Positions 3,788 to 21,590 of a stretch of 64,000 nt of DNA are shown here, one piece after another; positions within the stretch are counted from its first letter, which is position 1, and each line of letters opens with the position of its first letter. A program made the translations under genes and the position numbers. Origin of the DNA: a virus; the IMG/VR virus record IMGVR_UViG_3300012964_000003, positions 1 through 64,000 of that record; one strand, given 5' to 3'. The notes beneath the pieces are model-generated. The model worked only from the letters and a program-made list of their open reading frames with translations, searched no databases and was not told the DNA's origin.

Positions 3788-3839
3788 GCGTCACCCCCTT
3801 TCTGATACGACATCAACCAGCACTAGAAAGCCTTATCCA

Positions 3840-4178: not shown

Positions 4179-4181
4179 TGC

Positions 4182-6339: not shown

Positions 6340-6350
6340 TAAGGGCGTGG

Positions 6351-6587: not shown

Positions 6588-6593
6588 GCGCTG

Positions 6594-8375: not shown

Positions 8376-8551
8376 ACCCCAAGAGCACACCCATGTAGAG
8401 AGGCAGGTAAACGGGTAAACGGTTGTACCAGCGGTTCTAGAATTCGGAAAATCGCCAGAATACCCCGTGGGGAATAATGTCATGACGGCCAAATCGGAGT
8501 CCAGTATCGCCATGACACTGGACTCCGATTTCTGGCCTGTTTCACTGGTCC

Positions 8552-8923: not shown

Positions 8924-8938
8924 TGGTTGTCCTCTCTC

Positions 8939-9385: not shown

Positions 9386-9396
9386 GTTCCCTCCTT

Positions 9397-9768
9397 CTAT
9401 GCTGCTTGCTTCTTCTTGGGGGCAATCCGCACCACAAAGTAGGCGCGGTGACAGGCCAGACCCTGAACGACATGCTTGCCGTCCGCCGCTGGCTCCTTCG
9501 AGCTGTACTTATCGTACAGCTCTGGGCGGTTCTCTCGGAACAGACGCTCGTTGAAGTCGAAGTAGTCCGAGCTGATGTGGGTGGCATCCACAATGCGCGC
9601 TTGCCCTTCAAGATGGACGCGCTTTCGGTCACCCACGAACTTGGCCAGCTCATCGTAGAGCGCCCTGCGCTCTTTGTCCAGTGCGTCAATCTCGGCCTTG
9701 CACTGGTTGTAACGAGCGAACTTGGTTGCTGCTTGGCTGTTGTTCATGGCTCCTCCTTTGACTACCAT
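9397..9768 (-). CDS. hypothetical protein
   Basis: ORF track. Confidence 0.4.
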   Translation of the reverse strand: MVVKGGAMNNSQAATKFARYNQCKAEIDALDKERRALYDELAKFVGDRKRVHLEGQARIVDATHISSDYFDFNERLFRENRPELYDKYSSKEPAADGKHVVQGLACHRAYFVVRIAPKKKQAA

Positions 9769-10196
9769 TCCTGTACCAGCCCATCGGGTAGGACTATGCG
9801 TACTGGCTTGCCAACCTTGACCGCATAGCGAACTGTGGCCCAGGTACCGCTGCCACGCTTAATGTTCTTCTCGCTGTCGGGGACGGCAATGAGAACATCC
9901 GTGACATCAACAATCTCGTGGTTGCGCTGAAGGTACGGCAAAGGTGCCAGCATGATGTCGCCGAAGGTGAAAGCTCTTGCCTTCGCGTCTTCCGGCGGAT
10001 GCACAACAACCTTGTACCCCGCCAGGGCGGCAATGACACCTGCCTCTTCATCAGCCCCGATACAATCCCCGTGATGGAACTCCTTGCCGCCCAGCAGGCA
10101 GAGCAAGCTCTCCACCCGCTCGCGTTGGGCGTCGGTCATCCCCTTGTGTGTGCCTGTGAATCCGATGTTCACCTCAGTCCACCTTCTTCCGGCCAT
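9762..10196 (-). CDS. Rossmann-like protein, possibly in the DprA/Smf-LOG (SLOG) superfamily
   Basis: Start trimmed to MAGRRW. The pattern IGFTGTHKGMT...EFHHGDCIGAD...VVVHP is reminiscent of SLOG/DUF2493-type phage proteins. This assignment is tentative. Confidence 0.35.
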   Translation of the reverse strand: MAGRRWTEVNIGFTGTHKGMTDAQRERVESLLCLLGGKEFHHGDCIGADEEAGVIAALAGYKVVVHPPEDAKARAFTFGDIMLAPLPYLQRNHEIVDVTDVLIAVPDSEKNIKRGSGTWATVRYAVKVGKPVRIVLPDGLVQEW

Positions 10197-10563
10197 AGGC
10201 CCGAAGTTGCTCAAAAGCTGCCTCGTCCAGAAGCACAGGGTTCTCCTGCACAACCGGAATGCCAGCTTTACCTAGCCAGTAGTAGACCATGCCGGGAGAC
10301 ATCCCGAGCAGGATGCTCGCTCCGTGCACAGTCATGGGGAACTGGTGGAGCCTCTTGTGCCCAGAAGCACCCTTGACGGTTGTGGTCTTTCCACAAAGTG
10401 AACACACTTCATGGTCAAGGTGCGCATAAGTCCATGTTCCGCCCGGATACCCTGTTTGACCGCATCTTGGGCAAGCGACCTTACCCGAGTGGCCAGGTGT
10501 TGGTGGCCAGCCATATGAGCGCCGCCGAATGTGCAACTCCTTAGCCGTCGGCTCTCTACTCAT
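10174..10563 (-). CDS. zinc-ribbon plus helix-turn-helix DNA-binding protein, excisionase/MerR-like HTH
   Basis: CPRCG...CSLCG zinc ribbon, followed by MTVHGASILLGMSPGMVYYWLGKAGIPVV, an excisionase-type HTH. Confidence 0.5.
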   Translation of the reverse strand: MSREPTAKELHIRRRSYGWPPTPGHSGKVACPRCGQTGYPGGTWTYAHLDHEVCSLCGKTTTVKGASGHKRLHQFPMTVHGASILLGMSPGMVYYWLGKAGIPVVQENPVLLDEAAFEQLRAYGRKKVD

Positions 10564-11006
10564 GGCTGTCCTCTTTTCTTTGGCTTGTAGGCATCGCCCG
10601 CCGGAGCAATCGTCACTCGTCCCTCTGTTGCCTTAGCGCGCATGTAGCGAAGTGGAACGTCCAAGTACCGGTTGTACAGGGTCATAACCATTCTTGCGAA
10701 CTCTGGCCCATGACCCGCTGGGCTGCTTCCCAGACGGCAGTGGATGATGTGGTGCGCCATCTCGTGAATGACGATGCGTGGTTTCATGGAGTACTCGCCA
10801 AAGCGAATTCTTCCAACAAACTCGCACCAAGCTCCCGAGCTGTGCCGGCGAAAACGTACCCTTGGGGCCGTGACATCCCAGTCCTTGGCAATAGCCTCGA
10901 CCAATGCGACAACTTCATCACGAGTCATACTGCGGTTACCCGTCTCGTGCGTGAACAGTGACGCATACTCCCAGTCGTAGACTCGTCTTCTCTGTGAATC
11001 TCTCAT
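10560..11006 (-). CDS. HExxH zinc-metallopeptidase-like protein
   Basis: VIHEMAHHIIH motif. Start moved to MRDSQRRR, which has RBS AGGGAAGGAG. The track's upstream Met is the AUG inside the CUGAUGAGG core of hammerhead-like unit A. Confidence 0.55.
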   Translation of the reverse strand: MRDSQRRRVYDWEYASLFTHETGNRSMTRDEVVALVEAIAKDWDVTAPRVRFRRHSSGAWCEFVGRIRFGEYSMKPRIVIHEMAHHIIHCRLGSSPAGHGPEFARMVMTLYNRYLDVPLRYMRAKATEGRVTIAPAGDAYKPKKRGQP

Positions 11007-11018
11007 GGTTGCTCCTTC

Positions 11019-11092
11019 CCTCAGCTGCCTCATCAGTTCCAGAGAGCTGACCTCTGCAAGACCGAACCCTTGCGGGGGTTCGGTTTCGGCCT
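11019..11092 (-). ncRNA. hammerhead-ribozyme-like element, type II topology, unit A
   Basis: Minus strand reads GGCC-GAAA, then stem III CCGAACCC/GGGUUCGG, then GUC, then stem I with loop GUCAGCU, then CUGAUGA, then GGCAGCUGAGG. The loop UCAGCU pairs with the flank AGCUGA. It is preceded by a 10-bp GC hairpin after the ParB stop. Confidence 0.55.
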
Positions 11093-11131
11093 AAGTGGGG
11101 GCCGCGCGCATCTCGCGGCCCCCACACCCAA

Positions 11132-11971
11132 CTACACCGGCTCAGGATATGGCTCGGGGTTGGCTCCGCCGGGCCGGTAGTGCACGACGTCCATGGCGTA
11201 GCCTTTGCGGAAGGCATTCCAGCACTTGATGGCATACGCCATCATGACGTAGCCGTCGTTGGCCTCGTACTCTGCGCGAGCTGCGTTGGCCGTCAGCACC
11301 CGCCTAAAGGTGGCCGCTGGCGACTTAGGACCACTACCTCCTGTCTCCACAGAGACCCAAAAGGCTTCGGCGTCATCAGGTGATATGCTGTGGAACAAGT
11401 GGTCCGCCAGTGCGAACCAAGTGGCGCTCATGCCATGGAGAAGATGCTCTAGCCGTGCCGCTCTACGAGCAACACGGTCAACCTCCTCCTGGTGCTTGAC
11501 GTAGTAGTCCCACAGCTCCCACTGGGTAAATGGCCTGCTGCGGTGACCCAGCTTCACGCCACGCAGACCGACTTCCCAACAGGCGAACAGCCGCGTGCTT
11601 GAAGCCACAAGAGTGGCATAGTGCACGCCTCGAATCTGCAAGGCGTCCCCGAAGGTTCGCTTCATGCCGGTGTCCATGATGAGCTGGGTATCCGGGTCTA
11701 CGTTGCGAACTACAACACCCCAGACAGAGACGCCAGCCTGGAGAATGGCCATATAGCGATGCTGGCCGTCCAAAATGACGCCATCTGGGGCATGACGGTA
11801 TGGAGACCCATCATTCATCCAATGACCCGCCTTCATGTCGCGTGCCAGAGCGGCTACCCGCTCAACGCGAATGTGGCGGTTGCGCTCATTGAGCTGAAGT
11901 CGAGCCGCCGCCGTCTCCGGCGTGATAAGCTCCAAGTCTATCTGAAGCGCCGGACGCTTTGGTACTGCCAT
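11132..11971 (-). CDS. ParB-like nuclease domain protein
   Basis: N-terminal ParB/Srx motifs: ELITPETAAARLQLNERNRHIRVERVAALARDMKAGHW and VILDGQHR. Confidence 0.75.
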   Translation of the reverse strand: MAVPKRPALQIDLELITPETAAARLQLNERNRHIRVERVAALARDMKAGHWMNDGSPYRHAPDGVILDGQHRYMAILQAGVSVWGVVVRNVDPDTQLIMDTGMKRTFGDALQIRGVHYATLVASSTRLFACWEVGLRGVKLGHRSRPFTQWELWDYYVKHQEEVDRVARRAARLEHLLHGMSATWFALADHLFHSISPDDAEAFWVSVETGGSGPKSPAATFRRVLTANAARAEYEANDGYVMMAYAIKCWNAFRKGYAMDVVHYRPGGANPEPYPEPV

Positions 11972-11980
11972 GAGTTCCTC

Positions 11981-12214
11981 CTATGTGATTTCTGAGTCTT
12001 CCAGTGGCCCATCGGTTACAGGCATGCGCTTACCTGCCTCCTTGTAGGCATTCTGCAATTTACGCCGGACCTTGAGCCACTTCTTGCGTGCTTCCTGCGC
12101 CTCCTTTCGGGCACTTCCTGCTGCCTCTCGTGTCTCCTTTTCGACCTTGATGGCTGCAGAGTAGGCATCTCGAGCATCCTTCTCTGCAGATGACAGTCGC
12201 TCTAGAGAGGCCAT
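11981..12214 (-). CDS. small coiled-coil protein, about 77 aa
   Basis: Start MASLERL, translationally coupled (TGATG) to the upstream small peptide. The longer track ORF has a low-complexity GC-type N-terminus. Confidence 0.45.
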   Translation of the reverse strand: MASLERLSSAEKDARDAYSAAIKVEKETREAAGSARKEAQEARKKWLKVRRKLQNAYKEAGKRMPVTDGPLEDSEIT

Positions 12215-12327
12215 CAGGCTCTCCGCTTGATGCGAGGAAGTGGCTTCAAGAAGGCCACAAGAAGGCACACCGCTCCTATGGTGCCAATCACCGCAGAGAG
12301 CGCACCCATCACTGCCACTATTGGCAT
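12211..12327 (-). CDS. 38-aa hydrophobic peptide, MPIVAVMGALSAVIGTIGAVCLLVAFLKPLPRIKRRA
   Basis: Hand-found. RBS AAGGAG sits 5 nt upstream of the ATG. One predicted TM helix. Its stop overlaps the next start as TGATG. Too short for the ORF track. Confidence 0.35.
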
Positions 12328-12341
12328 AGCATCTCCTTTCT

Positions 12342-12407
12342 TCTAGAGACCTCATCAGCTGGCGTATCACGCCAGGACGCGGACGGAAGTCCGCGTTTCG
12401 GTCTAGA
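12342..12407 (-). ncRNA. hammerhead-ribozyme-like element, type II, with a complete stem II, unit B
   Basis: Minus strand reads UCUAGACC-GAAA, then III CGCGGAC/GUCCGCG with loop UUCC, then GUC, then I CUGGCG/CGCCAG with loop UGAUA, then CUGAUGA, then GGUCUCUAGA. The flanks pair as GGUC/GACC plus UAGA/UCUA, so stem II is about 8 bp with a bulge. Confidence 0.6.
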
Positions 12408-12471
12408 CTATGCTCCAAACAAGGCTCGGATGCTGACGATGTGCTGCCTGGGGGGCCACGTCCAGGTCGCC

Positions 12472-12687
12472 TCATCGGATTTTCCTGAGCGTGATTTCCC
12501 ACTCCGCATCGGCGCGTTCTGGGTGAAACCATCCCCCATCGAGCGTGTTCCCGATGAGAACCGTGAGGTGCTGCACCTCATCGCCGTAGGTATTCGGTGG
12601 GCCACCAAGCACGGCAGCACCACCGAAAGCGTCCACCAGCAGCGGCGTTAGCCTGCGGGCCATCCTGCACGCCTCGCTCATGTCTGT
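12472..12687 (-). CDS. hypothetical protein
   Basis: ORF track, with the start trimmed to an internal Met. Confidence 0.4.
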   Translation of the reverse strand, partial: TDMSEACRMARRLTPLLVDAFGGAAVLGGPPNTYGDEVQHLTVLIGNTLDGGWFHPERADAEWEITLRKIR

Positions 12688-12715
12688 CATCCGGCACCCC
12701 ACTCCCACCAACCTC

Positions 12716-13048
12716 CTAGGGCCATGGGTGCACCTCCCTGTTCTCGTCCAGAAGAATATGGCGTGCTCTGCTTACCGCCAGACGACGTTGCTCTACGCCT
12801 CCAGGTTCGAGTGGCAAGTCCCAGGCATTCAGCATGTCTTGCAGAGCCATCACGACCTGTTGGTGTCGCTCTTGTCGCGGAGTCAGTGGACGCAGAATGG
12901 GCGTGCCAATCCAGCGAAGATGACCGCGCTCGCTCGAGAGCCTCAGTGCAATCTCCGTGGCATCGCGAGGATTGTCAGCCATCACTGTGATTGTGGTGCT
13001 CCAGCTGAACTCCTCAAAACCAACGGGGACCATGTACTTGTTCTTCAC
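12716..13048 (-). CDS. hypothetical protein
   Basis: 110-aa ORF with an upstream RBS-like sequence. Confidence 0.45.
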   Translation of the reverse strand: MKNKYMVPVGFEEFSWSTTITVMADNPRDATEIALRLSSERGHLRWIGTPILRPLTPRQERHQQVVMALQDMLNAWDLPLEPGGVEQRRLAVSRARHILLDENREVHPWP

Positions 13049-13485
13049 TTGCCCCTCCCCTCGCGTTCTGCCGCAACCTCTCTGGCGACAATGACTCGAT
13101 ATTGTCCCACTAGCTTGATGACCTTCTTTCTCTCCAATGGAAACAGTGGAGCTCGTCCTTCTGGACAGGAGAAGTCAAGGCCACGCACTGTCCCAAAGAC
13201 CCGACATGTGAATGGGCGGTCCTCGTATATGGAGCAGCCGTGGGGGGTCTTGAAGACACAAGCGTATAGCATCTCTCCATGGTCCCGAACCACCTGGGCA
13301 GGAATCACCGTTCCTGCAATGGTGCCTTGAGTTAGGAATGTGCAAGTCTTGTGCTTGAGATGCTTGAGATGCCGTTTAGCCCGCCGCCATTCACTTGGGC
13401 TGAATGGAGTTGGGCCGCAGCATTTGTCGCAGTTCTGCTTGCAGGGGACGGAAGGGCATTGCGCGTACAGGTCTTCCAACTCCAT
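13045..13485 (-). CDS. YkgJ-family zinc/iron-chelating Cys-rich protein
   Basis: Start MELEDL with RBS AAAGGAGGTG. CKQNCDKCCGPTPFS matches the CxxxCxxCC motif of YkgJ-type proteins. Confidence 0.55.
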   Translation of the reverse strand: MELEDLYAQCPSVPCKQNCDKCCGPTPFSPSEWRRAKRHLKHLKHKTCTFLTQGTIAGTVIPAQVVRDHGEMLYACVFKTPHGCSIYEDRPFTCRVFGTVRGLDFSCPEGRAPLFPLERKKVIKLVGQYRVIVAREVAAEREGRGK

Positions 13486-13498
13486 CTGGCACCTCCTT

Positions 13499-13562
13499 TC
13501 TGGCGGCCTCATCGGTGTCCGCATCACGGACAGACGCCAGGCTTGCGCCCGGCGTTTCGGCC
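13499..13562 (-). ncRNA. hammerhead-ribozyme-like element, type II, variant core CCGAUGA, unit C
   Basis: The stop codon UAG abuts GCC-GAAA. Stem III is 8 bp with a GCAA tetraloop, then GUC. Stem I is UGUCCG/CGGACA with loop UGAUG. The core has C in place of U4, which may mean reduced activity or inactivity. Flanks pair as GGCC/GGCC. Confidence 0.45.
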
Positions 13563-13756
13563 TATGCCACGCGGTCGATGTGGAATCGAAAGAGAGCACC
13601 GTCCTTCATGGACATGAAGAACTTCGCATTCTCTCTGCCGCCCGATTCCGGACGAGCCTGGTTTCCTTCGATGCCGGTGATGATGGCTCCTCGCTCACCA
13701 AACTTGGTGCCGAGAAGTGAAACCACCTCCTGTGCCATCTGCATAGCGGTGAACGC
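13562..13756 (-). CDS. small hypothetical protein
   Basis: Probable GTG start after AGGAGG. Confidence 0.35.
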   Translation of the reverse strand, partial: AFTAMQMAQEVVSLLGTKFGERGAIITGIEGNQARPESGGRENAKFFMSMKDGALFRFHIDRVA

Positions 13757-13873
13757 CACCGTTATCACCTCCTCTCCATAGGGGTGGACCGCTGCCGCCC
13801 TGTACAGGTGGTGAGGCTGCCACCCGGCGCGACCTCGCGGTCGCACACGGACGACAGCGGCCCATGCTAAGCC

Positions 13874-14089
13874 TCACCTATAGGGCGGAGAATTGTTCTC
13901 GCAGAAGGCTGCCAGTTCTGCTGGCGACTCACCGTCGTCACCCACCTCAACACACCACGGCTTCAGGTCTTCACCGCACAGAGGACAAGAGCCAGTGAAC
14001 TTACTGTCACTGGCACAACCACACTCCGGACAGCGCCACTCTGAAGCGCTACAGGGGACCTTGCTCGGGCAAGGAACGGGTGCGTCCAT
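13874..14089 (-). CDS. Cys-rich zinc-ribbon protein, 71 aa
   Basis: CPECGC and CPLCGE pairs. Confidence 0.45.
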   Translation of the reverse strand: MDAPVPCPSKVPCSASEWRCPECGCASDSKFTGSCPLCGEDLKPWCVEVGDDGESPAELAAFCENNSPPYR

Positions 14090-14092
14090 GGT

Positions 14093-14782
14093 TCACGCCT
14101 CCATCTCTGCACACTTTGGGCCCATGCCGCGATGGATACTAGCTGGCACGGTAAGCTTGCGCCCACACCGCCAGCAGTTGCCGCTCTCGAGGGCATAGGC
14201 GTACCCGAACTTGCCAGGGTCCTCGTCCGAGAGAAGAACATTCAGCGCTTGGATGTATGATTGCATCTCAGGCGTGTTGAACCGTCGCCAGACCTTGACC
14301 TGGTCGCCGAACACGAACGCAAAGGATGCGTAGTTGACCTCGTTGTCCGGGCCGAACAGATACTGAGCCTGCTGGGTTCCCTTGGGGAAGTCGCCCCAGT
14401 GCACCCGCTTGACACGGAGCGTGATGTGGCTGCCGTCAGCCGCCACTACGGTGTAGGTCCCGTCACGCAGCTTGGGCATGACTGGCTCCAGTGCGGGCGG
14501 TAGCTCCTCGACCTTGTGAGTCTCGCGGAGCACCTCCGCACGCATGCAGTTGAGAACGCCCTTGGCCTGGGCTGCGCTGAGACCGGGATTGTTCGTGCGC
14601 AGCACCGCTGCCTTCATGTCCAGCATGAACTCAAAGTCGCCGGTGTAGTTGGCCGCGAACAACTCCGCAGCCGTTTGTAGGTCAGGGCTGTTCTCAATCT
14701 CTTCCGACGTAAACCGGTGGTCTGGGTTGGCTAGGATGAACTTGCGCACCTGGTCAACCGAGTCAGTCAAGAATGCCAACAT
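14093..14782 (-). CDS. hypothetical protein with a C-terminal zinc-ribbon motif resembling DUF6011 of actinobacteriophages
   Basis: C-terminal CWRCGRKLTVPASIHRGMGPKCA. RBS AAGGAGAGGAG. The DUF6011 comparison is from memory. Confidence 0.5.
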   Translation of the reverse strand: MLAFLTDSVDQVRKFILANPDHRFTSEEIENSPDLQTAAELFAANYTGDFEFMLDMKAAVLRTNNPGLSAAQAKGVLNCMRAEVLRETHKVEELPPALEPVMPKLRDGTYTVVAADGSHITLRVKRVHWGDFPKGTQQAQYLFGPDNEVNYASFAFVFGDQVKVWRRFNTPEMQSYIQALNVLLSDEDPGKFGYAYALESGNCWRCGRKLTVPASIHRGMGPKCAEMEA

Positions 14783-14800
14783 GGTTGCTCCTCTCCTTAT

Positions 14801-14866
14801 CGGCCTGCCTCTTCAGGTGTGAGCGGCCACCTCAACACGACGCGGAGCAGGTGCTCCGCGTTTCGG
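14801..14866 (-). ncRNA. hammerhead-ribozyme-like element, type II, core CUGAAGA, unit D
   Basis: UAA abuts CC-GAAA. III is CGCGGAGC/GCUCCGCG with loop ACCU, then GUC. Stem I loop GUGGCCG pairs with flank GGCC. Position N7 is A, which a hammerhead tolerates. Confidence 0.55.
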
Positions 14867-15087
14867 TTATCGATAGAATGGCTTGATATCTACCTCGAAC
14901 TCCGTGCCATCGAGGTCGATGAGGAACTCTGCACCGATGCGTCGGCCAACGATTTCCTCACGTAATGGCCGAACCGTTCCCACAAGCACAAACCGGCCAA
15001 GCAAAAGACGCACTTTCTTCATCCTAAAGGCGAGTTCCTCAGCTATCGCCAAGGCTACCGCCATGTCGTCTTTAGGCATGGCCATCC
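14867..15087 (-). CDS. hypothetical protein
   Basis: Start trimmed to MAMPKDDM, which follows AGGAAGGAGAGG. Confidence 0.4.
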
Positions 15088-15488
15088 TCTCCTTCCTGAG
15101 CTTGATTCTCCTCAGCCCAGTCCCAGATGAGCTTCTGGAGGTCTTCCTCTGTAGCCCATGCACGTGGCGACCAGCCCAACAGAACTACGTAGGTCAGGTC
15201 GTCCGTGCACATGTAGGGCTGGTTGGTGTCCTCGTCCCAACCGCACTTGTATGGTGGTCCCTGAGGCACCGGCACACTTGGGTCTCCTGCCGTCTGGTCG
15301 GCAATGGCATCGTCGCCACAGAGAGGACACTGACCCAGAACATCCTCGCTGGGCCCAATGGGGAACCAGCCACCCAGCTCGCCCTCGAACCGCAGGCCAT
15401 ACTTGGTGCGACAGGTGGGGCATGTGACCTCGCAGATGTCAACGCCCATGTAGCCGGTGGTCATGCCGGGTGGGTAGTTGCTAGGCAT
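15072..15488 (-). CDS. Cys-rich zinc-ribbon hypothetical protein
   Basis: Start MPSNYPP after GGAGAAGGTG. CPTC and CPLCG pairs. Confidence 0.45.
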   Translation of the reverse strand: MPSNYPPGMTTGYMGVDICEVTCPTCRTKYGLRFEGELGGWFPIGPSEDVLGQCPLCGDDAIADQTAGDPSVPVPQGPPYKCGWDEDTNQPYMCTDDLTYVVLLGWSPRAWATEEDLQKLIWDWAEENQAQEGEDGHA

Positions 15489-15804
15489 CAAGGTCACCTT
15501 CTCCGCCGAAGTCCACGCTGACCAGGTCACAGACCTGGTCGCCCTCCACCCAGAATCTACCCAGTTCAGAACCTGTGCTGGGCTCATGCTCTTCTTCCGG
15601 GTCGGCCTGGTTGTTGTAGGACCGGAACATCATTGCTGTGTGACGGGCGAACGCATGCCTGCTGTCCACGACGTCCATAATGAAGCGGTCCTCTTCCTGC
15701 AGATAGACGACGTTGACCGCCGCCATGGGTTTGCCATCGATGAACAAGTGGAATGCTCCGTTGGCTCCATCGACAGGCGCAAACTCAACAACGTGTCTGG
15801 CCAT
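15481..15804 (-). CDS. hypothetical protein
   Basis: Start MARHVVEF after AAGGAGGG. The track's longer ORF begins at a GUG inside stem I of the upstream element. Confidence 0.5.
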   Translation of the reverse strand: MARHVVEFAPVDGANGAFHLFIDGKPMAAVNVVYLQEEDRFIMDVVDSRHAFARHTAMMFRSYNNQADPEEEHEPSTGSELGRFWVEGDQVCDLVSVDFGGEGDLDA

Positions 15805-15819
15805 GACTCCCTCCTTGTA

Positions 15820-15888
15820 GTTGACCTGCCTCATCAGCTGCGCGACGGTCGCTCGCACAGAACCCTACCTTGCGGTAGGGTTTCGGCT
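15820..15888 (-). ncRNA. hammerhead-ribozyme-like element, type II, unit E
   Basis: UGA abuts GCC-GAAA. III is CCCUACC/GGUAGGG with loop GCAA, then GUU. Stem I is 8 bp with loop GCGACCG, then CUGAUGA, then GGCAGGUCAAC. Loop GACC pairs with flank GGUC. Confidence 0.6.
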
Positions 15889-16781
15889 CAGATGTGACAA
15901 TCCACCACCGTGATGACTGTGTCTGGGGGCAAAGAGTCGTACAGCTCTTGGACCGCATGATTCCAAGAATCCTGCTCGACCTCGTTGGTGGAGATACCCC
16001 ACCAACCCATGTCTCCACGGGCTACCCACTTGCCGTCCCTGACGATGGCATAGGGAACTCCGGCGTGCTCAATGGCAGCCGCAACGAATGCCTCACGGCC
16101 ACGCAAATAGGTGTCTGGCGTCTCATCCCAGGACAAAGGGAGCTTGTCCTTGAACGTTGCCTTGTCAAGAGCCTGAACTGCCTCTTGGCCCCCGTACACC
16201 TTGCGTGCAAACTCGACGTTGCTGTTCTCTCCCCTGACCTCTTCCCAAGACTGATACTCAGACAGGTCAAGGTGCCCGAGCACCTGCTCCAGCAAGTCGA
16301 AGTAGCTATTGGCCTTGCGAGCTGCTTCATTGCGCATGGCCTTGAAGTCGATATCCTTCGCCTTGAGCACATCGGCTGTGCCTGGGGAGGCCTCGTTGCC
16401 GAATACTCCCGGAACACCAAGGTGGCCATCAGCCCCTGGCTTCAACATGAAGAAGCCCATCCAGCGCCCGCCCACCTCGTACCAGTCCCACTTGCTATCC
16501 GGGTTGTAGGTCTTGTAGTACCGAATAGTCTTGCCCCAGAGGGCGTCCACAATGCTGGGACCGGGACCTGTGTCTCCATGACCGTTCCAGTCATCGAGAT
16601 GGCGAAGGAGGCCCTCGAGAGAATGCTGAGTGCTCTCTTCCTTGTTGTAGTACTCAGTCATTCTCTGAAGCTCTTCCTCGTCCATGTCGACGGGGTACGG
16701 GTCAACCTCTGTGTTCTCGTTGTAGGGAGCCAGCTGCTCTTCCACATTGCCTCCTATAACAACTACCGGAAAGTGACTCAT
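15888..16781 (-). CDS. hypothetical protein, 297 aa
   Basis: Long ORF, acidic, no motif recognised. Confidence 0.55.
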   Translation of the reverse strand: MSHFPVVVIGGNVEEQLAPYNENTEVDPYPVDMDEEELQRMTEYYNKEESTQHSLEGLLRHLDDWNGHGDTGPGPSIVDALWGKTIRYYKTYNPDSKWDWYEVGGRWMGFFMLKPGADGHLGVPGVFGNEASPGTADVLKAKDIDFKAMRNEAARKANSYFDLLEQVLGHLDLSEYQSWEEVRGENSNVEFARKVYGGQEAVQALDKATFKDKLPLSWDETPDTYLRGREAFVAAAIEHAGVPYAIVRDGKWVARGDMGWWGISTNEVEQDSWNHAVQELYDSLPPDTVITVVDCHI

Positions 16782-16797
16782 GCCAGTCTCCTTTCTT

Positions 16798-16887
16798 GTT
16801 TGACCTGCCTCATCAGTCTGTGGTTGGTCAGGCCACAGAGACGCCCTCAGCCGCGCTGATGGTCCCGCAGCTGGGGGCGTTTCGGCT
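16798..16887 (-). ncRNA. hammerhead-ribozyme-like element, type II, unit F
   Basis: UAA abuts GCC-GAAA. III has a 5-bp closing stem plus an extended hairpin, then GUC. Stem I is UCUGUGG/CCACAGA with loop CCUGACCAA. Loop UGACC pairs with flank GGUCA. Confidence 0.55.
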
Positions 16888-17372
16888 TACGGTTCTCCGA
16901 AGGGCACAGTCCTGCCCCGAACCGCCAGGTCACGGCGTGCCTTGTTCGGGTTGAAGCTCTTGTGAGTCCAGTCTGGCGGACGCTGGCGTGCTCGGTTCCA
17001 GTAGTTGAACGACTTGCCCCAGCGGTTTGGCCCCTCTTCTGGATCTGGAACAATCCAATATCGCACGATGCGCATGCTAGCGTTCGTGAACTTGTGGCCG
17101 TCGCTGGTGAAGTAGTCTCCCTTGACCTCAACAACGGCGAGAACCTGAGGATAGTTGACGTACTCCAGACAGAGATAGACCGTGCCGCAAGCATTGAGAC
17201 CAAGACAGAGACCGCGAACATTCTCGTGCCGCCACACCCCAGGCTTCCAGGGTGAATGGTCGTACATGCTCACGATGGCACCGGTGTCTCGGTCGACCCT
17301 CAATGCCTTCCAAAGATAGCGAGTGCCTGTGTGCTTGCATCTTTGGGTTTCATCATACCGTCGCTTTGTCAT
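16887..17372 (-). CDS. hypothetical protein
   Basis: Start MTKRRYDE after GAGAGGAGGAAG. The track Met at 17465 is the AUG created by a GAAAUG core variant. Confidence 0.5.
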   Translation of the reverse strand: MTKRRYDETQRCKHTGTRYLWKALRVDRDTGAIVSMYDHSPWKPGVWRHENVRGLCLGLNACGTVYLCLEYVNYPQVLAVVEVKGDYFTSDGHKFTNASMRIVRYWIVPDPEEGPNRWGKSFNYWNRARQRPPDWTHKSFNPNKARRDLAVRGRTVPFGEP

Positions 17373-17383
17373 GCTTCCTCCTC

Positions 17384-17470
17384 TCTTTGGCAGCCTCATC
17401 AGACCCGCCATGCCAAGGCGGGTGATGCGCCCGCACCCCAGTCGGGGTTCGGAGCACGGGCGCATTTCGG
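17384..17470 (-). ncRNA. hammerhead-ribozyme-like element, type II, GAAAU variant, unit G
   Basis: UAG overlaps CC-GAAAU. III is an 8-bp closing stem with internal elaboration, then AUC. Stem I is ACCCGCC/GGCGGGU with loop UUGGCAU. Loop UUGGCA pairs with flank UGCCAA (6 bp). Confidence 0.5.
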
Positions 17471-17674
17471 CTAGTCGGCGTCAACCCACTCCATGGTGGT
17501 CGCCAGCAAGTGGTTGTAGTCACCGCTGGTGGCCTCCTTGAGATAGGCGTCTTGCTCTTCATTGGAGACGCCAGCACGATGCATGGCCTGCGTTACTCGG
17601 GCCAAGATGGCGAAGGCGTTACCGTCCTCGCCAACCAGGTCGACGTGTACCTCTGGGTGCCTGATGTCGGCCAT
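17471..17674 (-). CDS. hypothetical protein, 67 aa
   Basis: ORF track. Confidence 0.45.
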   Translation of the reverse strand: MADIRHPEVHVDLVGEDGNAFAILARVTQAMHRAGVSNEEQDAYLKEATSGDYNHLLATTMEWVDAD

Positions 17675-17677
17675 CGG

Positions 17678-18100
17678 TTACCCCTCCTCGTCTGGCAGAA
17701 TATGGTAGGTGATGTCCGGCTCGTCTTCCTCGCCCCAAGCCGGATGGTCCCAGCCCATGCAGAGCAGGTGACGGTTGTAGTTCTTGCTGTGCGCCTTGCG
17801 GTAGGTGTCCTCCGCCGCGTTGGCGCTTTCCGCCTCCACGTGCTCCAGGACCGTCACCTTGCCGCCCTCTTTGGGCGTGGTGCAGATGGCGAACTTGTAG
17901 GTGACGTTCTCTGGCGTGTCACCCAGCACGCGCTTGACGTAGCCGCGCCTGGTCCAGCCGGGCATGCCTTGGGCGTCGTCGAAGAACACCTTGGTGCCCA
18001 GCGCCTGTGGGTGGCATCCGAAGCCAGTCTTGGCATCGACGACGGAGCCATCCTCAAGCTCGACCCGCTTGCCCTCCAGATTGATGTCCTCGATGCTCAT
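17678..18100 (-). CDS. hypothetical protein, 140 aa
   Basis: ORF track. RBS AAAGGAG. Confidence 0.5.
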   Translation of the reverse strand: MSIEDINLEGKRVELEDGSVVDAKTGFGCHPQALGTKVFFDDAQGMPGWTRRGYVKRVLGDTPENVTYKFAICTTPKEGGKVTVLEHVEAESANAAEDTYRKAHSKNYNRHLLCMGWDHPAWGEEDEPDITYHILPDEEG

Positions 18101-18113
18101 TGCATTCTCCTTT

Positions 18114-18193
18114 CACACAGCCTGCCTCATCAGCGGTGGGGTGGCTGGCTCCCACCGGACTCCGCCCGCACATGGCGAGCGGAGTTTCGGCTG
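18114..18193 (-). ncRNA. hammerhead-ribozyme-like element, type II, unit H
   Basis: UAA, then CAGCC-GAAA. III is 10 bp, CUCCGCUCGC/GCGGGCGGAG, then GUC. Stem I is CGGUGGG/CCCACCG with loop AGCCAGCCAC. Loop CAGCC pairs with flank GGCUG. Confidence 0.55.
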
Positions 18194-19087
18194 TTACGCC
18201 ACGTCCTCTTCGGAATAGGCGAACCCTGTGATGACCATGCTCTGGAACTCGCCGTCGGGTGCAGTTGCCGGAGTTACGGCATACCCCTGCTTGAGCAAGA
18301 AGCGATACAGGTGCGCAGCGCGTTCTGCCGTGACCGTCTTGGCTCCGTCCCTGACTGCCTTGTCCCGCGCATGATAGGCATCCCAGTCCTCGTCCTCTCC
18401 GCGCTCAGGCGACGTGAAGGCGATGTCGCCCGCGACAACGATGACCCGACGAACAGGCTTGTTCTCCTGCGACACCGTGATGGCGTCCCGACGGAGAGCG
18501 AATCTGTCGCGCACACGCCGAACCTCGGTGCCCGGAAACTCCTTGACAATCTGGGCTGCCACATGCTTGGCCTGAAGAGTCTCGCCCGTGAGGGGATGAT
18601 TCGGCATCCCCTTGGCACGCTCGGCTGCAGCCTTCTTCGCTTCACGCTCAGCGACACGGTCACGGCGATACTCTAGCCGCGCATTGAGCAGCTCTGGACC
18701 GAAGTTGGCGACCAACTTCTCGTACAGCTCCAAGGCCGCCACATGCATGACCTCACTTTCTGAGTTGCGCCCGATGGATGTCGACTTGTGCCCAGAGTAG
18801 TTGAACACAAGACGGTCCAGCTGCTCTTCCACGAACACAGCCGCGCCATACATGGCGTCCTTGCCCCGCTCAGCATAGACCTCGACGTACTTGAGCATGC
18901 TGCCGAACAAACTGACCATCTCTTGCTCAGCGATGAGGTCGAGCAGATAGTCGACCGTCCAGCTATCAGCAGCATTGGCGTCCATGGCCTTGTCGACCTT
19001 GCCGCGCAAGTCCACCGCCCTGGAGGCATGCTCCTCCCTTGCCCTGGCGATGCTACCCTTGCTCATCTCATACAACGAAATATGCAT
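18194..19087 (-). CDS. hypothetical protein, 297 aa
   Basis: Long ORF. RBS AAAAGGAGAA. Confidence 0.55.
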   Translation of the reverse strand: MHISLYEMSKGSIARAREEHASRAVDLRGKVDKAMDANAADSWTVDYLLDLIAEQEMVSLFGSMLKYVEVYAERGKDAMYGAAVFVEEQLDRLVFNYSGHKSTSIGRNSESEVMHVAALELYEKLVANFGPELLNARLEYRRDRVAEREAKKAAAERAKGMPNHPLTGETLQAKHVAAQIVKEFPGTEVRRVRDRFALRRDAITVSQENKPVRRVIVVAGDIAFTSPERGEDEDWDAYHARDKAVRDGAKTVTAERAAHLYRFLLKQGYAVTPATAPDGEFQSMVITGFAYSEEDVA

Positions 19088-19104
19088 GGCGTTCTCCTTT
19101 TCTT

Positions 19105-19173
19105 GTGGCCTGCCTCATTCAGCTGCGGGCGGCCAGCCCCACAGGACCGGGCGGTGCCGCCCGGTTTCGGCTT
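19105..19173 (-). ncRNA. hammerhead-ribozyme-like element, type II, core with one inserted A (CUGAAUGA), unit I
   Basis: III is CCGGGCG/CGCCCGG with loop GCAC, then GUC. Stem I is 7 bp with loop GCUGGCCG. Loop UGGCC pairs with flank GGCCA. The core insertion may make this copy inactive. Confidence 0.4.
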
Positions 19174-19403
19174 GTTGTCCAGACGTCTTGTTGCCACCTA
19201 CGCTACGCTGCTCTTTGCCGACTTTCGCTCGCTGGCCTACTACTTCTTGCGATGTTCAGCCAGGTCGTCGCGGTGGGAAGTCTTATAGCCGCCCACGCTG
19301 TGCTGCCTTTTGCTGACTCTGGACAATCTAGTAGTTGCTGACGGTCGCCCGTTCGTACGCTCCCCGGCTATGCCGGACGTGTCCCTCGACAGACCGTCAG
19401 CAA

Positions 19404-19736
19404 TCAGCTGTGATGAGCTGCGTCTGGGTTCTTCTCGTAGGCCTCATCGACAGCCTGCTTCAGCCGCTGCCCGAAGTAGTCGGCTCCCCGATAGGAGTCG
19501 TTCGGCTTGTCCGGGTCAATGACCAGGATGTCGCTAGTGCTGAGGTCATCTCCCAAAGGGACGATGCCCAGCAGCTCTCCCTTCTCCGGCTCTGCCTCAT
19601 ACCCACCGCGCGAGTAGCCGGTGGTGGTGTAGCGGAAGCGCGCGACCATGTATGGCCGCCCACCAACGCCATTGCGGTGGTAGTGCAAGTGAAGAATCTC
19701 GAGCTCATCAACAGCATCGAACTTCGGTTTGCCCAT
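19404..19736 (-). CDS. hypothetical protein, 110 aa
   Basis: RBS AGGAGGTG. Confidence 0.5.
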   Translation of the reverse strand: MGKPKFDAVDELEILHLHYHRNGVGGRPYMVARFRYTTTGYSRGGYEAEPEKGELLGIVPLGDDLSTSDILVIDPDKPNDSYRGADYFGQRLKQAVDEAYEKNPDAAHHS

Positions 19737-19749
19737 GATGCACCTCCTG

Positions 19750-19816
19750 GTTGACCTGCCTCATCAGCCGCATGGCGGTCGCCCATGCAGGACCTGGCCG
19801 CGTGGGCCAGGTTTCG
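19750..19816 (-). ncRNA. hammerhead-ribozyme-like element, type II, unit J
   Basis: UAG abuts CC-GAAA. III is CCUGGCC/GGCCAGG, then GUC. Stem I is 8 bp with loop GCGACCG. Flank GGCAGGUCAAC. Confidence 0.6.
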
Positions 19817-19817
19817 G

Positions 19818-20097
19818 CTACGCCTCGGCCAACTCGTCCACGCGTGTGTGGAAGTCATGCCAGGCAGCCGTCTCGTCTGCGAAGTAGTGCCCCCAGCACA
19901 AGCCACCGGTGGCAGAGATGCGCCACGTGGCGTATTGCTGGTAGTGGTTGGGCATGTACCCCAACACAACGCCATCTGTGATTGGTCTCGCGCTCAGTCG
20001 AGACAACGATGATGGCCTTGGGCGTGATGCCCTCCCGCTTCATCTCCTTGTCTACAGAGATGGCGGTGTCGCGCACACGCTCGGTCTCTCTCATGAC
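19818..20097 (-). pseudogene. gene whose coding signal switches reading frame; frameshift, sequencing indel or programmed shift
   Basis: Frame A starts after AGAGGGAGG with MRETERVRDTAISVDKEMKREGITPKAIIVVSTERE and then degrades into Arg/Cys-rich junk. Frame B reads ...RPITDGVVLGYMPNHYQQYATWRISATGGLCWGHYFADETAAWHDFHTRVDELAEA and ends exactly at the next element's GAAA box. Confidence 0.35.
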
Positions 20098-20109
20098 GTG
20101 CCTCCCTCT

Positions 20110-20178
20110 GTTGACCTGCCTCATCAGCACATGGGCGGTCACCCCACGCGGACCCCAGCCTGCGCTGGGGTTTCGGCT
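20110..20178 (-). ncRNA. hammerhead-ribozyme-like element, type II, unit K
   Basis: UGA abuts GCC-GAAA. III is CCCCAGC/GCUGGGG with loop GCAG, then GUC. Stem I is 8 bp with loop GUGACCG pairing flank GGUCA. Core CUGAUGA. Confidence 0.6.
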
Positions 20179-20411
20179 CATACAGGCTTGAATTCCGGGC
20201 AGTTGGCAGGAGAGATTCCTGACCACAGACACTCGGGATGCGTGCCGCCACACACGACCTCATAGTCGGGCATGTCGCCATCTGCATAGTGGGGGCACAC
20301 CTCACATGCCGCCTGGCAGAACTCACACCCAAATGGCCCTGCGGCTGTTCCGCCTGTGTGGTCATTGGCACAGTCATCGATGCACGTTAACGGCCACCTC
20401 TCGTCAGCCAT
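20178..20411 (-). CDS. Cys-rich hypothetical protein, 77 aa
   Basis: Multiple CxxC pairs. Confidence 0.45.
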   Translation of the reverse strand: MADERWPLTCIDDCANDHTGGTAAGPFGCEFCQAACEVCPHYADGDMPDYEVVCGGTHPECLWSGISPANCPEFKPV

Positions 20412-20442
20412 CTTGCACCTCCCTTCTGCTCAAGTTCCCTCC

Positions 20443-20739
20443 CTACAGCTCGCGCAGCTTCATGCCGCGCTCAGCGGCGCACACTGGGCAGAACGCGGCT
20501 GTGGCATGCGAGTTGTGGATGCGACGCTCGTCAGCGCGCGTGGCGCCGTTGATGATGCGCGCAACCTCCCATGGTATGCCTGCCTGCCCTACCGCTGCCA
20601 TGAGCTTGGAACCGTTGCCTGAGCGGTGGCGCGCTACGCGTGCCTCCACGTCGCTGGCCCAGCCCACGTAGTGGCGCGCGTGGGCCAGCGGGTGGTGCAG
20701 GTGGATGATGTAAACTGAGCCTTGCACATCTGTGGCCAT
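20443..20739 (-). CDS. GIY-YIG nuclease domain protein
   Basis: SVYIIHL...HYVGWASDVEARVARHRSG follows the GIY-YIG pattern with a conserved Arg/His/Gly. Confidence 0.6.
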   Translation of the reverse strand: MATDVQGSVYIIHLHHPLAHARHYVGWASDVEARVARHRSGNGSKLMAAVGQAGIPWEVARIINGATRADERRIHNSHATAAFCPVCAAERGMKLREL

Positions 20740-20822
20740 GGGTGCCTCCTACCCTTGGTCTGTCTTACCGGGTCCGGTAAAGCCAAGGAAGCCATCACCG
20801 AGCGGTGGTGGCTCCCCTGGGC

Positions 20823-21053
20823 CTACAGGATGCGAAGCGCGAACTCCTGCGCGGCGCTGTGCAGCGAACGCTCATAGTGGCCGTTGGCACAGCCACAAGC
20901 GTCGCTGTCGAAAAGGTCGCCCTGCGCTGCCTGCACCATCGGGTGGCGCGGCGCGACCCAGGTCACGTGCTCATTGTTCACGGGCACGTACGCCAGCACA
21001 ACCACGTGGTCGCCGGTGGCGGCTGGCTTGGCGTCTATCAGGATGGCTTTCAT
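20823..21053 (-). CDS. hypothetical protein
   Basis: Start MKAILIDAKP after AAGGAGAGAG. Confidence 0.45.
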   Translation of the reverse strand: MKAILIDAKPAATGDHVVVLAYVPVNNEHVTWVAPRHPMVQAAQGDLFDSDACGCANGHYERSLHSAAQEFALRIL

Positions 21054-21067
21054 GGCTCTCTCCTTGT

Positions 21068-21138
21068 GGTGACCTGCCTCTTCAGACCGCACCCGGTCAA
21101 CGGTGCGGTGACCCCGCGTTAGCGGGGTTTCGGCTTGG
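21068..21138 (-). ncRNA. hammerhead-ribozyme-like element, type II, core CUGAAGA, unit L
   Basis: UAG, then CCAAGCC-GAAA. III is CCCCGC/GCGGGG, then GUC. Stem I is 8 bp with loop GUUGACCG pairing flank GGUCA. Confidence 0.55.
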
Positions 21139-21399
21139 CTAGCTCAGGGTGATGACCTCATCATCGGCGGGCACCACGATGGGGCCCTCGGGGCTGTCAA
21201 GGTCATAGAACCGACCTGAGGTCCCTGGGGTACGGCGCACCCCACCAACGGGGATGAAGCTGTCGGCACGGCGATACCAGGCCAAACGGTCAGCGGAGAA
21301 CCAGTCCTTCACGTTCAGGTTCTGCCGCATGAGCTGAACGGCTGGCCCGCCTGCCGAGCCCTCCCAAAGCTGCCTGGCGGTGATGGCTGCGGGATTCAT
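21139..21399 (-). CDS. hypothetical protein, 86 aa; first gene of the leftward operon
   Basis: RBS AAGGAGAA. Confidence 0.45.
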   Translation of the reverse strand: MNPAAITARQLWEGSAGGPAVQLMRQNLNVKDWFSADRLAWYRRADSFIPVGGVRRTPGTSGRFYDLDSPEGPIVVPADDEVITLS

Positions 21400-21412
21400 G
21401 GCGTTCTCCTTG

Positions 21413-21590
21413 TGCTCAGCTGCCTCATCGGTGCCCGCTTGCTGAAGGCGGGCAGACGCGCGCGTTGGTCAACTCGCTCCTGGTTGTCTGGGTTGGTGGT
21501 GCGGCAACCTTTGCTGACGTGGCCTGGTCGCTATGCCAGGGTCTTCAGCGCCAGAGCGTAGAGCGTTGTCCGTGACGCGCGTTTCGGCTT
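21413..21590 (-). ncRNA. hammerhead-ribozyme-like element, type II, with a ~110-nt insertion inside stem III and variant core CCGAUGA, unit M; the promoter-proximal copy
   Basis: AGCC-GAAA, then III closing stem CGCGCGU/ACGCGCG enclosing a multi-hairpin insert, then GUC. Stem I is UGCCCGC/GCGGGCA with loop CUUCAGCAA pairing flank GCUGAG. Confidence 0.4.

Follow-up and report, generated by a model that had tools for sequence, protein, structure and literature searches.

Thirteen elements assigned to the type II hammerhead ribozymes, all of them encoded on the minus strand, are spread over positions 21588-11021 (10.6 kilobases, kb) of a 64-kb stretch of phage DNA that is referred to here as the window (IMG/VR virus record IMGVR_UViG_3300012964_000003, positions 1 to 64,000; the full stretch was analyzed on both strands), where they stand between the genes of a leftward operon or, in one case, in the leader before its first gene. 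The sequences support this assignment: stems I and III of the three-way junction are closed by loops and stem II is open. The copies belong to the type II subclass in which the 3' tail forms a pseudoknot with loop I, they occupy the promoter-proximal 10.6 kb of the operon, and they probably serve to process its transcript by a route that is independent of the host.

Detection, fold and core of the array

A simple motif search recovers 13 of 13 units with one shared order of parts, in agreement with an earlier note on this DNA, made from its letters alone, which had placed 13 elements at these positions on the minus strand. Copies are numbered from HH1 (11021) to HH13 (21588). The Rfam model RF02276 (Hammerhead_II; gathering score 37 bits), a scan with which the earlier note had proposed as a check, recognizes eight of the 13 copies at or above its gathering score (50.0, 44.3, 43.7, 43.5, 41.4, 40.6, 39.1 and 38.5 bits); a permissive rerun to E <= 10 adds four at lower scores, at 18116-18192 (36.4 bits), 14799-14868 (35.4 bits), 12341-12403 (24 bits) and 21414-21470 (22.1 bits), and leaves one, at 13505-13562, without a match at that threshold. 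Two of the sub-threshold copies (36.4 and 35.4 bits) fall less than 2 bits short of the gathering score and three copies are divergent, low scores going with long inserts, the absence of a pseudoknot tail or a variant core. Within the Rfam clan, the best model for the window copies is the type II model.

A covariance model constructed in the present work (R1), seeded with six copies rather than with the 13 that the earlier note had envisaged and run unfiltered over the 64 kb on both strands, detects 12 copies at E <= 1.4e-4 and the thirteenth, HH13, as two weak halves split by an insertion. Beyond the array it gives no significant match anywhere in the window on either strand, and in 950 kb of unrelated phage-like loci it gives no match at E <= 0.01. 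Because significant matches in the window occur only in this region, and R1 has none in the 950 kb of other DNA, the array can be regarded as real, as confined to 21588-11021 and as strand-specific. No other ribozyme class is found above Rfam thresholds in the window or in the arrays with which it was compared.

All 13 copies have the same order of parts from 5' to 3' on the transcribed strand: a stem II strand, GAAA, the closed stem III, H17, the closed stem I, CUGANGA (with variants in three copies) and the second stem II strand. Stem II typically has 3 base pairs (bp; GCC/GGC), stem III is a G+C-rich hairpin and stem I is a hairpin of 6-8 bp. Plain MAFFT alignments, whether of 13 or of six copies, are inconsistent with this structure, and covariance-model and hand-curated alignments were used instead. 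When pairs are counted in the covariance-model alignment, which covers 12 copies and to which the pseudoknot was added manually, standard pairs fill 96.2% of the cells, compared to 67% in 500 shuffles and 33-37% when the partners are slid against each other; 19 of 24 pairs vary on both sides (8 of 8 in stem I, 7 of 8 in stem III and 4 of 5 in the pseudoknot), and none of the 500 shuffles reaches any of the five pairing measures. The claim that the helices are maintained while the stem sequences differ between copies is borne out. Covariation is uninformative for stem II, which is nearly invariant. In the hand-curated stems of all 13 copies there are 234 Watson-Crick pairs, 8 G-U pairs and 2 A-C pairs, and both of the latter lie in stem II. 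Because G-U pairs occur without the mirror-image A-C pairs in stems I and III, the molecule under selection is the minus-strand RNA and not a DNA palindrome that would be conserved regardless of strand, an outcome which the earlier note had named as fatal to its proposal. Together with the Rfam matches and the covariation, these strand-specific pairs uphold the type II topology that the note had described between the stop codon and the ribosome-binding site of the transcribed strand. The three-way junction is also the minimum-free-energy (MFE) structure in eight of the 12 copies tested.

The 3' box of the element had been described as a fixed sequence, GGCAGGUCAAC or a variant. It consists in fact of the 3' strand of stem II (GGC), followed in most cases by a single A, and of a run of 4-6 nucleotides which pairs with loop I, so that the description had missed a pseudoknot. 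Contiguous Watson-Crick pairs, 4-6 in number, form this pseudoknot in 11 of the 13 copies, and they fall into five sequence classes, each of which matches its own loop: GGUC(A)/(U)GACC (five copies), GGCCA or GGCCG/UGGCC (two), GGCUG/CAGCC (one), UGCCAA/UUGGCA (one) and (A)GCUGA/UCAGC(U) (two). The adjacent copies HH2 and HH3 lack the pseudoknot and have instead a longer stem II, a 6-bp stem I and a UGAUR loop, a form which is absent among the 334 other copies with which they were compared. According to Perreault et al. 2011 (PMC3088659), the contact between loop I and the 3' tail is typical of type II hammerheads and critical for fast cleavage, and its loss lowered activity more than 100-fold in the example tested there.

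As the earlier note had stated, 11 copies carry GUC as their cleavage triplet and one copy each has GUU (at 15823-15887) or AUC (at 17387-17471), and in two copies, at 14801-14867 and 21070-21134, the core reads CUGAAGA. The complete conserved core (C3 U4 G5 A6 N7 G8 A9, G12 A13 A14, A15.1-U16.1 and an H17 other than G) is present in 10 of 13 copies, in which N7 is U or A and H17 is C in nine and U in one; G12-A14, A15.1-U16.1 and H17 are intact in every copy. The claim that the core is invariant apart from N7 does not hold, since the copies at 13505-13562 and 21416-21588 read CCGAUGA (a substitution denoted U4C) and the copy at 19106-19171 reads CUGAAUGA, with an inserted A. In a type III hammerhead, deep mutational scanning associated changes within the CUGA turn with low activity (PMC9901934), and the 'A6a' insertion, which is the one in HH9, is described in PMC3088659 as a natural low-activity variant. 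It was found once more in the present comparison, at locus L006 (L numbers denote comparison loci).

The U4C substitution was surveyed in 338 structurally valid copies with a scanner which tolerates one substitution, of whatever kind, among the six fixed positions of CUGANGA; the sample is skewed to one subfamily and is no proper census. It occurs in 13 of the 338 copies, 11 of which lie outside the window, from at least nine unrelated loci (L044, L067, L076, L129, L132 with three copies, L134, L189 with two, L207, L266 and the two window copies at 13505-13562 and 21416-21588), while every other substitution at a fixed position accounts together for a single copy. The copies that carry it are otherwise well-formed type II elements of unrelated phages and prophages, with the core CCGAUGA or, once, CCGACGA, and the available portions of PMC3088659 contain no discussion of the substitution. 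Because U4C recurs while other core substitutions are almost absent, it looks like a tolerated or selected variant rather than a product of random decay. An association of U4C with a U-A pair that closes stem I was considered and dropped as weak (9/13 versus 130/329, p = 0.04). Copies with U4C, the inserted A, a GUU or AUC triplet or no pseudoknot would probably cut more slowly than the others.

Placement in the operon and the probable role of the ribozymes

Genes 1-24 of the leftward operon (21399-10560) are co-oriented, mostly small and without assigned function, PHROG and Pfam scans of the ribozyme-flanked genes being nearly empty, and the ribozymes bound blocks of one to three genes which overlap or almost touch within each block. 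Gene-to-gene gaps of at least 76 nucleotides in the array region hold a ribozyme in 12 of 14 cases, and gaps of at most 31 nucleotides hold none (HH13 lies in the leader before gene 1). The upstream stop codon, said earlier to abut every unit, overlaps the ribozyme or lies within 4 nucleotides of it in nine of 13 copies; the other four have spacers of 42, 65 and 232 nucleotides or no convincing upstream gene. The distance from the 3' end of the ribozyme (the pseudoknot strand, or stem II in two copies) to the Shine-Dalgarno sequence is 2-7 nucleotides, which is shorter than the roughly 8 nucleotides that had been estimated, and the leader that the downstream message would retain after the cut is 47-58 nucleotides long in all 13 copies. 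The stem III hairpin would form the end of the upstream message, 25-48 nucleotides past the point at which the stem II strand starts; the folding energies of these hairpins range from -13 to -28 kcal/mol.

Each unit would fold co-transcriptionally into the three-way junction, with the pseudoknot aligning stems I and II, and would be cut 3' of C17 (of U17 in the GUU copy at 15823-15887) to give a 2',3'-cyclic phosphate and a 5'-OH. The predicted cut falls between the two closed hairpins, such that the upstream RNA would keep stem III at its 3' end and the downstream RNA would start with stem I and the pseudoknot at its first nucleotide; because the halves would then be held by the 3-bp stem II (GCC/GGC) alone, they should part and the cut should be effectively irreversible. 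The operon would in this way yield about 13 mono- to tricistronic messenger RNAs (mRNAs) with structured ends, without any host nuclease, and the stability and translation of each message would be uncoupled from those of its neighbours. Terminal hairpins are a classic protection against 3' exonucleases and against decay that depends on the 5' end. Type II is the sole hammerhead permutation which leaves a closed hairpin on both new ends, types I and III leaving one product with a single-stranded end, and it may be for this reason that type II is the one seen between cistrons.

That processing of this kind takes place, with cleavage in vivo, release of the products, protection of their ends and any advantage to the phage, is probable, and cleavage itself has precedents among related elements. 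In PMC3088659, in which transcript processing was already inferred for prophage hammerhead clusters, polycistronic fragments of about 2 kb that carry clustered phage hammerheads were cleaved in vitro and an Agrobacterium triple was cleaved in E. coli as well, and in vivo cleavage is on record for three type II hammerheads of Desulfovibrio (PMC8782182). A benefit to the phage is unproven anywhere (PMC6765202), and reviews call the role of bacterial and phage hammerheads an open question (PMC6765202, PMC6155905).

Several observations weigh against this reading. The core deviates in three copies, and comparable variants have low activity elsewhere, which by analogy may apply here; HH2 and HH3 lack the contact that was worth more than 100-fold in activity in the published example and might be impaired to a similar degree. 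The expected 5'-OH end could be destabilizing unless the terminal hairpin blocks access to it: in Bacillus, it is through its 5'-OH end that the product of the glmS ribozyme becomes a target of RNase J1. Cleavage was also considered as a means of unmasking the ribosome-binding site, by comparing the predicted unpaired probability of the Shine-Dalgarno sequence, under nested folding, in the 3' product with that in a precursor extended upstream by 100 nucleotides; there is no systematic gain in accessibility, and such a role is unsupported. A consensus scan for the promoter of the leftward arm finds no site near HH13 and no excess over shuffles, the nearest promoter-like matches being weak (22251-22223 and 23263-23234, minus strand). 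Finally, the homologues of gene 11 in 80 other loci are without hammerheads, which means that the ribozymes are not needed for gene 11 as such; the relatives of this gene in IMG/VR and metagenomes are at most 40% identical.

It is tempting, and on balance unlikely to be correct, to see in the variation among the copies a tuned processing programme instead of 13 equivalent cutters, with U4C as a selected 'slow' allele and HH13 as a regulated gate for the operon. The variants that would supply the graded rates are U4C (in two copies), the inserted A, the GUU and AUC triplets, a 2-bp stem II, the loss of the pseudoknot and the 115-nucleotide loop of HH13. If such a programme existed, cleavage rates graded by these variants would set the relative amounts and the lifetimes of the early mRNAs.

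The ribozymes might also be real, and might even cut, and yet be selfish or neutral passengers which have spread into intergenic gaps with gene cassettes or by duplication and which bring the phage no benefit. The copies of some other arrays are as alike as would be expected after recent duplication (stem-loop I identity 0.78-0.79 in L081 and L226), gene 11 is found elsewhere without hammerheads, and several window copies carry changes that likely weaken them. The window copies, however, have diverged to a stem-loop I identity of 0.52 and still remain 96% paired with a covarying pseudoknot, which, because pairing was kept despite the low identity, requires long purifying selection on each copy. 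Their placement is moreover exact in all 13 cases, both in the spacing to the Shine-Dalgarno sequence and in the length of the leader, and no copy lies on the wrong strand or within a gene, so that passenger status is distinctly unlikely.

Cleavage could alternatively be conditional and coupled to translation, the ribozymes reading ribosome traffic and setting the fate of the message rather than cutting every transcript: a terminating ribosome would cover GCC-GAAA and the 5' half of stem III, and a 30S subunit on the Shine-Dalgarno sequence would compete with the pseudoknot. The closeness of the stop codon to the ribozyme, which is within 4 nucleotides in nine of the 13 copies and 2-5 nucleotides before G12 in 57% of 305 others, fits this idea, as does the fact that the pseudoknot strand adjoins the Shine-Dalgarno sequence; PMC3088659 presents the pseudoknot as critical for speed and raises regulated cleavage as a possibility. 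The tight spacing is, however, equally explained by genome economy together with the A that precedes the stem II strand in the Rfam consensus, and four window copies are not beside a stop codon at all, which makes coupling of this kind improbable.

It is very improbable that the segments between ribozymes are joined into circular or spliced RNAs by the reverse reaction or by a host ligase of the RtcB type. The internal segments would carry exactly the ends which such ligases use, and the possibility is raised in PMC3088659, which also reports that such products were sought and that none was found; in the window, a 3-bp stem II would give little hold for religation, and no RNA ligase or end-healing enzyme appears among the Pfam hits of the phage in the part of its proteins that was scanned. 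That the elements are merely DNA sites or plain hairpins (palindromic recombination sites, terminators or pause sites, or entry sites for nucleases) is hardly credible, despite the two G+C-rich inverted repeats in each element and the strong plain hairpins in hammerhead-less gaps of the same operon, given the single-stranded and asymmetric conservation of the GAAA, NUH and CUGANGA boxes, the location of 13 of 13 copies on one strand, the 8 G-U pairs against 2 A-C pairs with no A-C pair in stems I and III, the covarying pseudoknot and the lack of a U-tract after the stems (a scan for terminator-like structures found 11 where shuffles led to an expectation of 10.8).

Comparison with other arrays and known systems

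Loci which carry the same ribozyme subfamily were collected from IMG/VR and from GTDB genomes and cut at 8-15 kb, so that the sizes given for their arrays are minima. The Streptomyces sp. BBFR102 chromosome (NZ_CP195757.1, L235) has 10 copies by R1 and one more by Rfam within 7.3 kb, and Kineococcus sp. SYSU DK025 (L226) has eight in 8 kb; other dense arrays hold nine copies in 4.7 kb (L056), eight in 5 kb (L146), six in 2.2 kb (L127) and six in 4.4 kb (L081). Their units are laid out like those of the window, the stop codon being followed by GCC-GAAA, the pseudoknot and the Shine-Dalgarno sequence. In a survey of 305 other type II hammerheads, made with a structural scanner developed for the purpose and with open reading frames (ORFs) of 50 or more codons, G12 is preceded by a stop codon at a distance of 2-5 nucleotides in 57% of the copies and within 12 nucleotides in 71%, compared to about 1% and about 4% at mock points 150 nucleotides upstream. 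Abutment of the stop codon is a family-wide trait, and the impression of novelty that the regular, stop-abutting layout had first given is not sustained, since other phages and prophages carry arrays of equal or greater density. The chief distinction of the window array is the mutual divergence of its copies, for which the mean stem-loop I identity is the 0.52 cited above; within each of L081 and L226, unlike the window, stem I and the pseudoknot are almost identical from copy to copy.

When compared to type II hammerheads as defined by RF02276 and as described by Perreault et al. 2011 (PMC3088659), the window copies have the same core, junction, short open stem II, pseudoknot of 4-6 bp and setting in phages and prophages, as well as the A6a variant, and nothing categorical separates the two; the window has in addition U4C twice, two copies with a longer stem II and no pseudoknot, and one 115-nucleotide stem III loop. 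The prophage clusters of Agrobacterium tumefaciens, Azorhizobium caulinodans and Clostridium scindens (PMC3088659) and of Desulfovibrio vulgaris (PMC8782182) resemble the window array in that gene-oriented ribozymes in intergenic gaps flank single genes or short blocks, and the first two are the alphaproteobacterial cases to which the earlier note had alluded. For these clusters it was proposed that long phage transcripts are processed to gene-length mRNAs, and their cleavage was demonstrated both in vitro and in vivo. The window array, known here from its sequence alone, is longer than the clusters that have been tested, which are triples or fragments of about 2 kb, and it is not denser than the Streptomyces, Kineococcus and IMG/VR arrays. 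The locus is a large and well-preserved further example of a phenomenon known since 2011.

Three systems outside this family provide functional comparisons. RNase III, according to work attributed to Dunn and Studier, reportedly cuts the early transcript of phage T7 at structured intercistronic sites to give mRNAs whose ends are held in hairpins. The likeness is one of functional analogy only, because T7 uses a host protein nuclease which acts on double-stranded stems, whereas self-cleavage with 5'-OH and 2',3'-cyclic phosphate ends is predicted here. The RiboJ insulator, said to have been described by Lou et al. in 2012, reportedly consists of a type III hammerhead (sTRSV) with an added hairpin, placed upstream of a ribosome-binding site, and removes the upstream sequence. 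The window units likewise stand just before a ribosome-binding site and would leave a constant, short, structured leader; they differ in that the whole RiboJ ribozyme stays on the downstream RNA and leaves no upstream hairpin, whereas cleavage would divide each type II element into two halves that both end in a hairpin. In function the array may resemble an insulator, but it does not belong to the RiboJ design, being of type II, divided by the predicted cut and without effect on the predicted accessibility of the Shine-Dalgarno sequence. In linear RNA viruses of fungi and plants, hammerheads occur in intergenic or 5' untranslated regions, where self-cutting gives rise to a subgenomic message and is linked to the translation of the ORF that follows (bioRxiv 10.1101/2024.05.16.594327). 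These elements fill a short intergenic region in the same manner and cut a few to tens of nucleotides before the next ORF; in contrast to the window copies they are of type I, lack the usual tertiary contacts and operate in eukaryotes, and the issue of cap-independent initiation which they raise has no bacterial counterpart.

Individual copies, flanking sequence and the phage

The copies and the gene string in which they lie are listed in the table. HH13 was curated by eye and checked against the sequence; it is a probable divergent type II hammerhead and the least certain copy of the 13. HH3 is probably slow or inactive.

Table. Hammerhead copies and the leftward gene string in the window. 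Cuts are predicted and are given as the positions on either side; RF02276 and R1 scores are in bits; "3WJ" marks copies whose MFE fold is the three-way junction.
Feature	Coordinates	Strand	Core and triplet	Pseudoknot	Predicted cut	Next gene start	RF02276	R1	Other features
HH13	21416..21588	-	CCGAUGA (U4C), 21431-21425; GUC	GCUGA with loop UCAGC	21455/21454	21399 (first gene)	22.1 (3' part alone)	11.9 + 9.2 (halves)	In leader; GCC-GAAA (GAAA 21585-21582) and GGC; stem III A+CGCGCG / CGCGCG+U with 115-nucleotide loop (insertion of about 110 nucleotides, which folds by itself, -46.9 kcal/mol, z -2.4); stem I 7 bp
HH12	21070..21134	-	CUGAAGA (N7 = A), otherwise canonical; GUC	GGUCA/UGACC (5 bp)	21110/21109	21053	43.5	64.1 (seed)	3WJ, z -3.2
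HH11	20112..20177	-	canonical; GUC	GGUCA/UGACC	20151/20150	20094	50.0 (E 2.7e-07)		Stem I with two G-U pairs; UGA stop abuts stem II GCC strand
HH10	19753..19818	-	canonical; GUC	GGUC/GACC (4 bp)	19791/19790	19736	44.3	89.7 (seed)	UAG stop overlaps stem II
HH9	19106..19171	-	CUGAAUGA (1-nucleotide A6a insertion); GUC	GGCCA/UGGCC	19145/19144	19087	41.4		Preceding stop 232 nucleotides away
HH8	18118..18191	-	canonical; GUC	GGCUG/CAGCC	18158/18157	18100	36.4 (below gathering score)	45.6 (though outside seed)	Stem III 11 bp
HH7	17387..17471	-	canonical; AUC	UGCCAA/UUGGCA (6 bp)	17424/17423	17372	40.6	28.9	Extended stem III with inner hairpin; UAG stop overlaps stem II; 3WJ, z -3.2
HH6	16801..16886	-	canonical; GUC	GGUCA/UGACC	16840/16839	16781	39.1	48.4	Stem III lengthened by 28-nucleotide structured insert; UAA stop abuts GCC
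HH5	15823..15887	-	canonical; GUU	GGUC/GACC	15861/15860	15804	38.5		UGA stop abuts GCC; 3WJ, z -3.6
HH4	14801..14867	-	CUGAAGA; GUC	GGCC(G)/(U)GGCC	14839/14838	14782	35.4 (below gathering score)	69.8 (seed)	Stem II just 2 bp (ACC/GGC); bulged U in stem I; UAA stop overlaps stem II
HH3	13505..13562	-	CCGAUGA (U4C); GUC	none	13533/13532	13485	no match at E <= 10	31.2 (E 4.4e-05)	Stem II 4 bp (GGCC/GGCC); stem I 6 bp, loop UGAUG; UAG stop abuts stem II; 3WJ, z -3.7
HH2	12342..12407	-	canonical; GUC	none	12376/12375	12327 (37 codons)	24	32.4	Stem II long, bulged (UCUAGACC/GGUCUcUAGA); stem I 6 bp, loop UGAUA; preceding stop 65 nucleotides away; 3WJ, z -3.85
HH1	11021..11090	-	canonical; GUC	AGCUGA/UCAGCU (6 bp)	11060/11059	11006	43.7	40.5 (outside seed)	Last copy; one G-G mismatch in stem I
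Leftward gene string	1132..21399	-							Co-oriented, from gene calls and Pfam; genes 1-24 subdivided by ribozymes

Several stretches of minus-strand sequence near the ribozymes are structured in their own right. A perfect 12-bp G+C hairpin without a U-tract lies at 11091-11131, between the stop codon of a ParB-like gene and HH1, in which GGGGGCCGCGCG pairs with CGCGCGGCCCCC (-29.9 kcal/mol, z -3.55). The two ribozyme-free gaps at 13760-13876 and 20740-20825 are both strongly structured and have no Rfam match: the former forms a 15-bp stem around two hairpins (-62.5 kcal/mol, z -3.7), with the loop of the second complementary to the UGAGGCU at the 5' edge, and the latter a long imperfect hairpin followed by a small one (-39.7 kcal/mol, z -2.65). 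Both could be processing sites of the RNase III type or stabilizers. The 232-nucleotide spacer without an ORF between gene 6 and HH9 (19172-19406) begins with a 12-bp stem that closes about 45 nucleotides (-43.9 kcal/mol, z -2.1) and is otherwise unstructured. Between HH11 and HH10 (19818-20094), the gene that starts at ATG 20094 reaches its stop at 19855; from about 19985 onwards its third-position G+C is 0.50 in its own frame and a normal 0.81 in the +1 frame, which ends in a UAG that overlaps HH10. The switch, which is seen in two independent assemblies, represents either a programmed shift or a mutation.

Upstream of the array, the divergent region between the two arms contains two stretches of about 0.8 kb each (21589-22451 and 22869-23685) with no convincing gene. 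Their ORFs, including a 74-residue plus-strand call at 21634-21858, are rich in Arg and Ala and resemble the frames of non-coding G+C-rich DNA, and the terminal UAA of a 31-codon minus-strand ORF (21684-21589) abuts HH13. Downstream, genes 25-39 are tightly packed and without ribozymes, and Pfam identifies among them an SNF2 helicase, a PD-(D/E)XK nuclease, AAA_24, VWA and Band_7; two gaps in this ribozyme-free part, at 8022-8551 (530 nucleotides) and 6106-6350 (245 nucleotides), have no called gene and no Rfam match on the minus strand and may be internal promoters or novel RNAs. The G+C content of positions 10001-22000 is 0.586-0.645, compared to about 0.51-0.57 in the first 10 kb and beyond 34 kb, the structural genes at 22-34 kb being similar (0.567-0.594); this excess may come from the G+C-rich ribozyme stems, from a different origin of the genes or from both.

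The contig is that of a phage, with a terminase, a Mu-like portal, a protease and a capsid protein on the plus strand and a DnaE-type polymerase and glycosyltransferases further on. It is known from metagenome assemblies (Logan SRR15532676 and ENA ERZ27227668, the latter 99.995% identical), and comparison locus L277 is the same phage at 99.995% identity and adds no comparative information. The window has no nucleotide match among INPHARED phages, its terminase is at most 27% identical to that of any phage record, the ParB-like gene has no match in IMG/VR, and the nearest relative of the portal (L276, 47% identity) has no hammerheads. The ribozyme subfamily occurs in Bacillota, Actinomycetota, Chloroflexota and others, and does not point to a particular host.

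A metagenomic contig without a host limits direct experiments, and the question of what such ribozymes are for is not made more tractable by it. To specialists, the points of use are the abutment of stop codons, U4C as the one recurrent core substitution and the two hairpin-ended products that are expected of type II elements. With its diverged stems, its uniform spacing and its built-in variants of the core and of the tertiary contact, the 13-copy array would, once cloned into a surrogate host, form a compact test bed, which could show whether hammerheads of this kind process operons independently of the host and leave a hairpin on each of the two new RNA ends.

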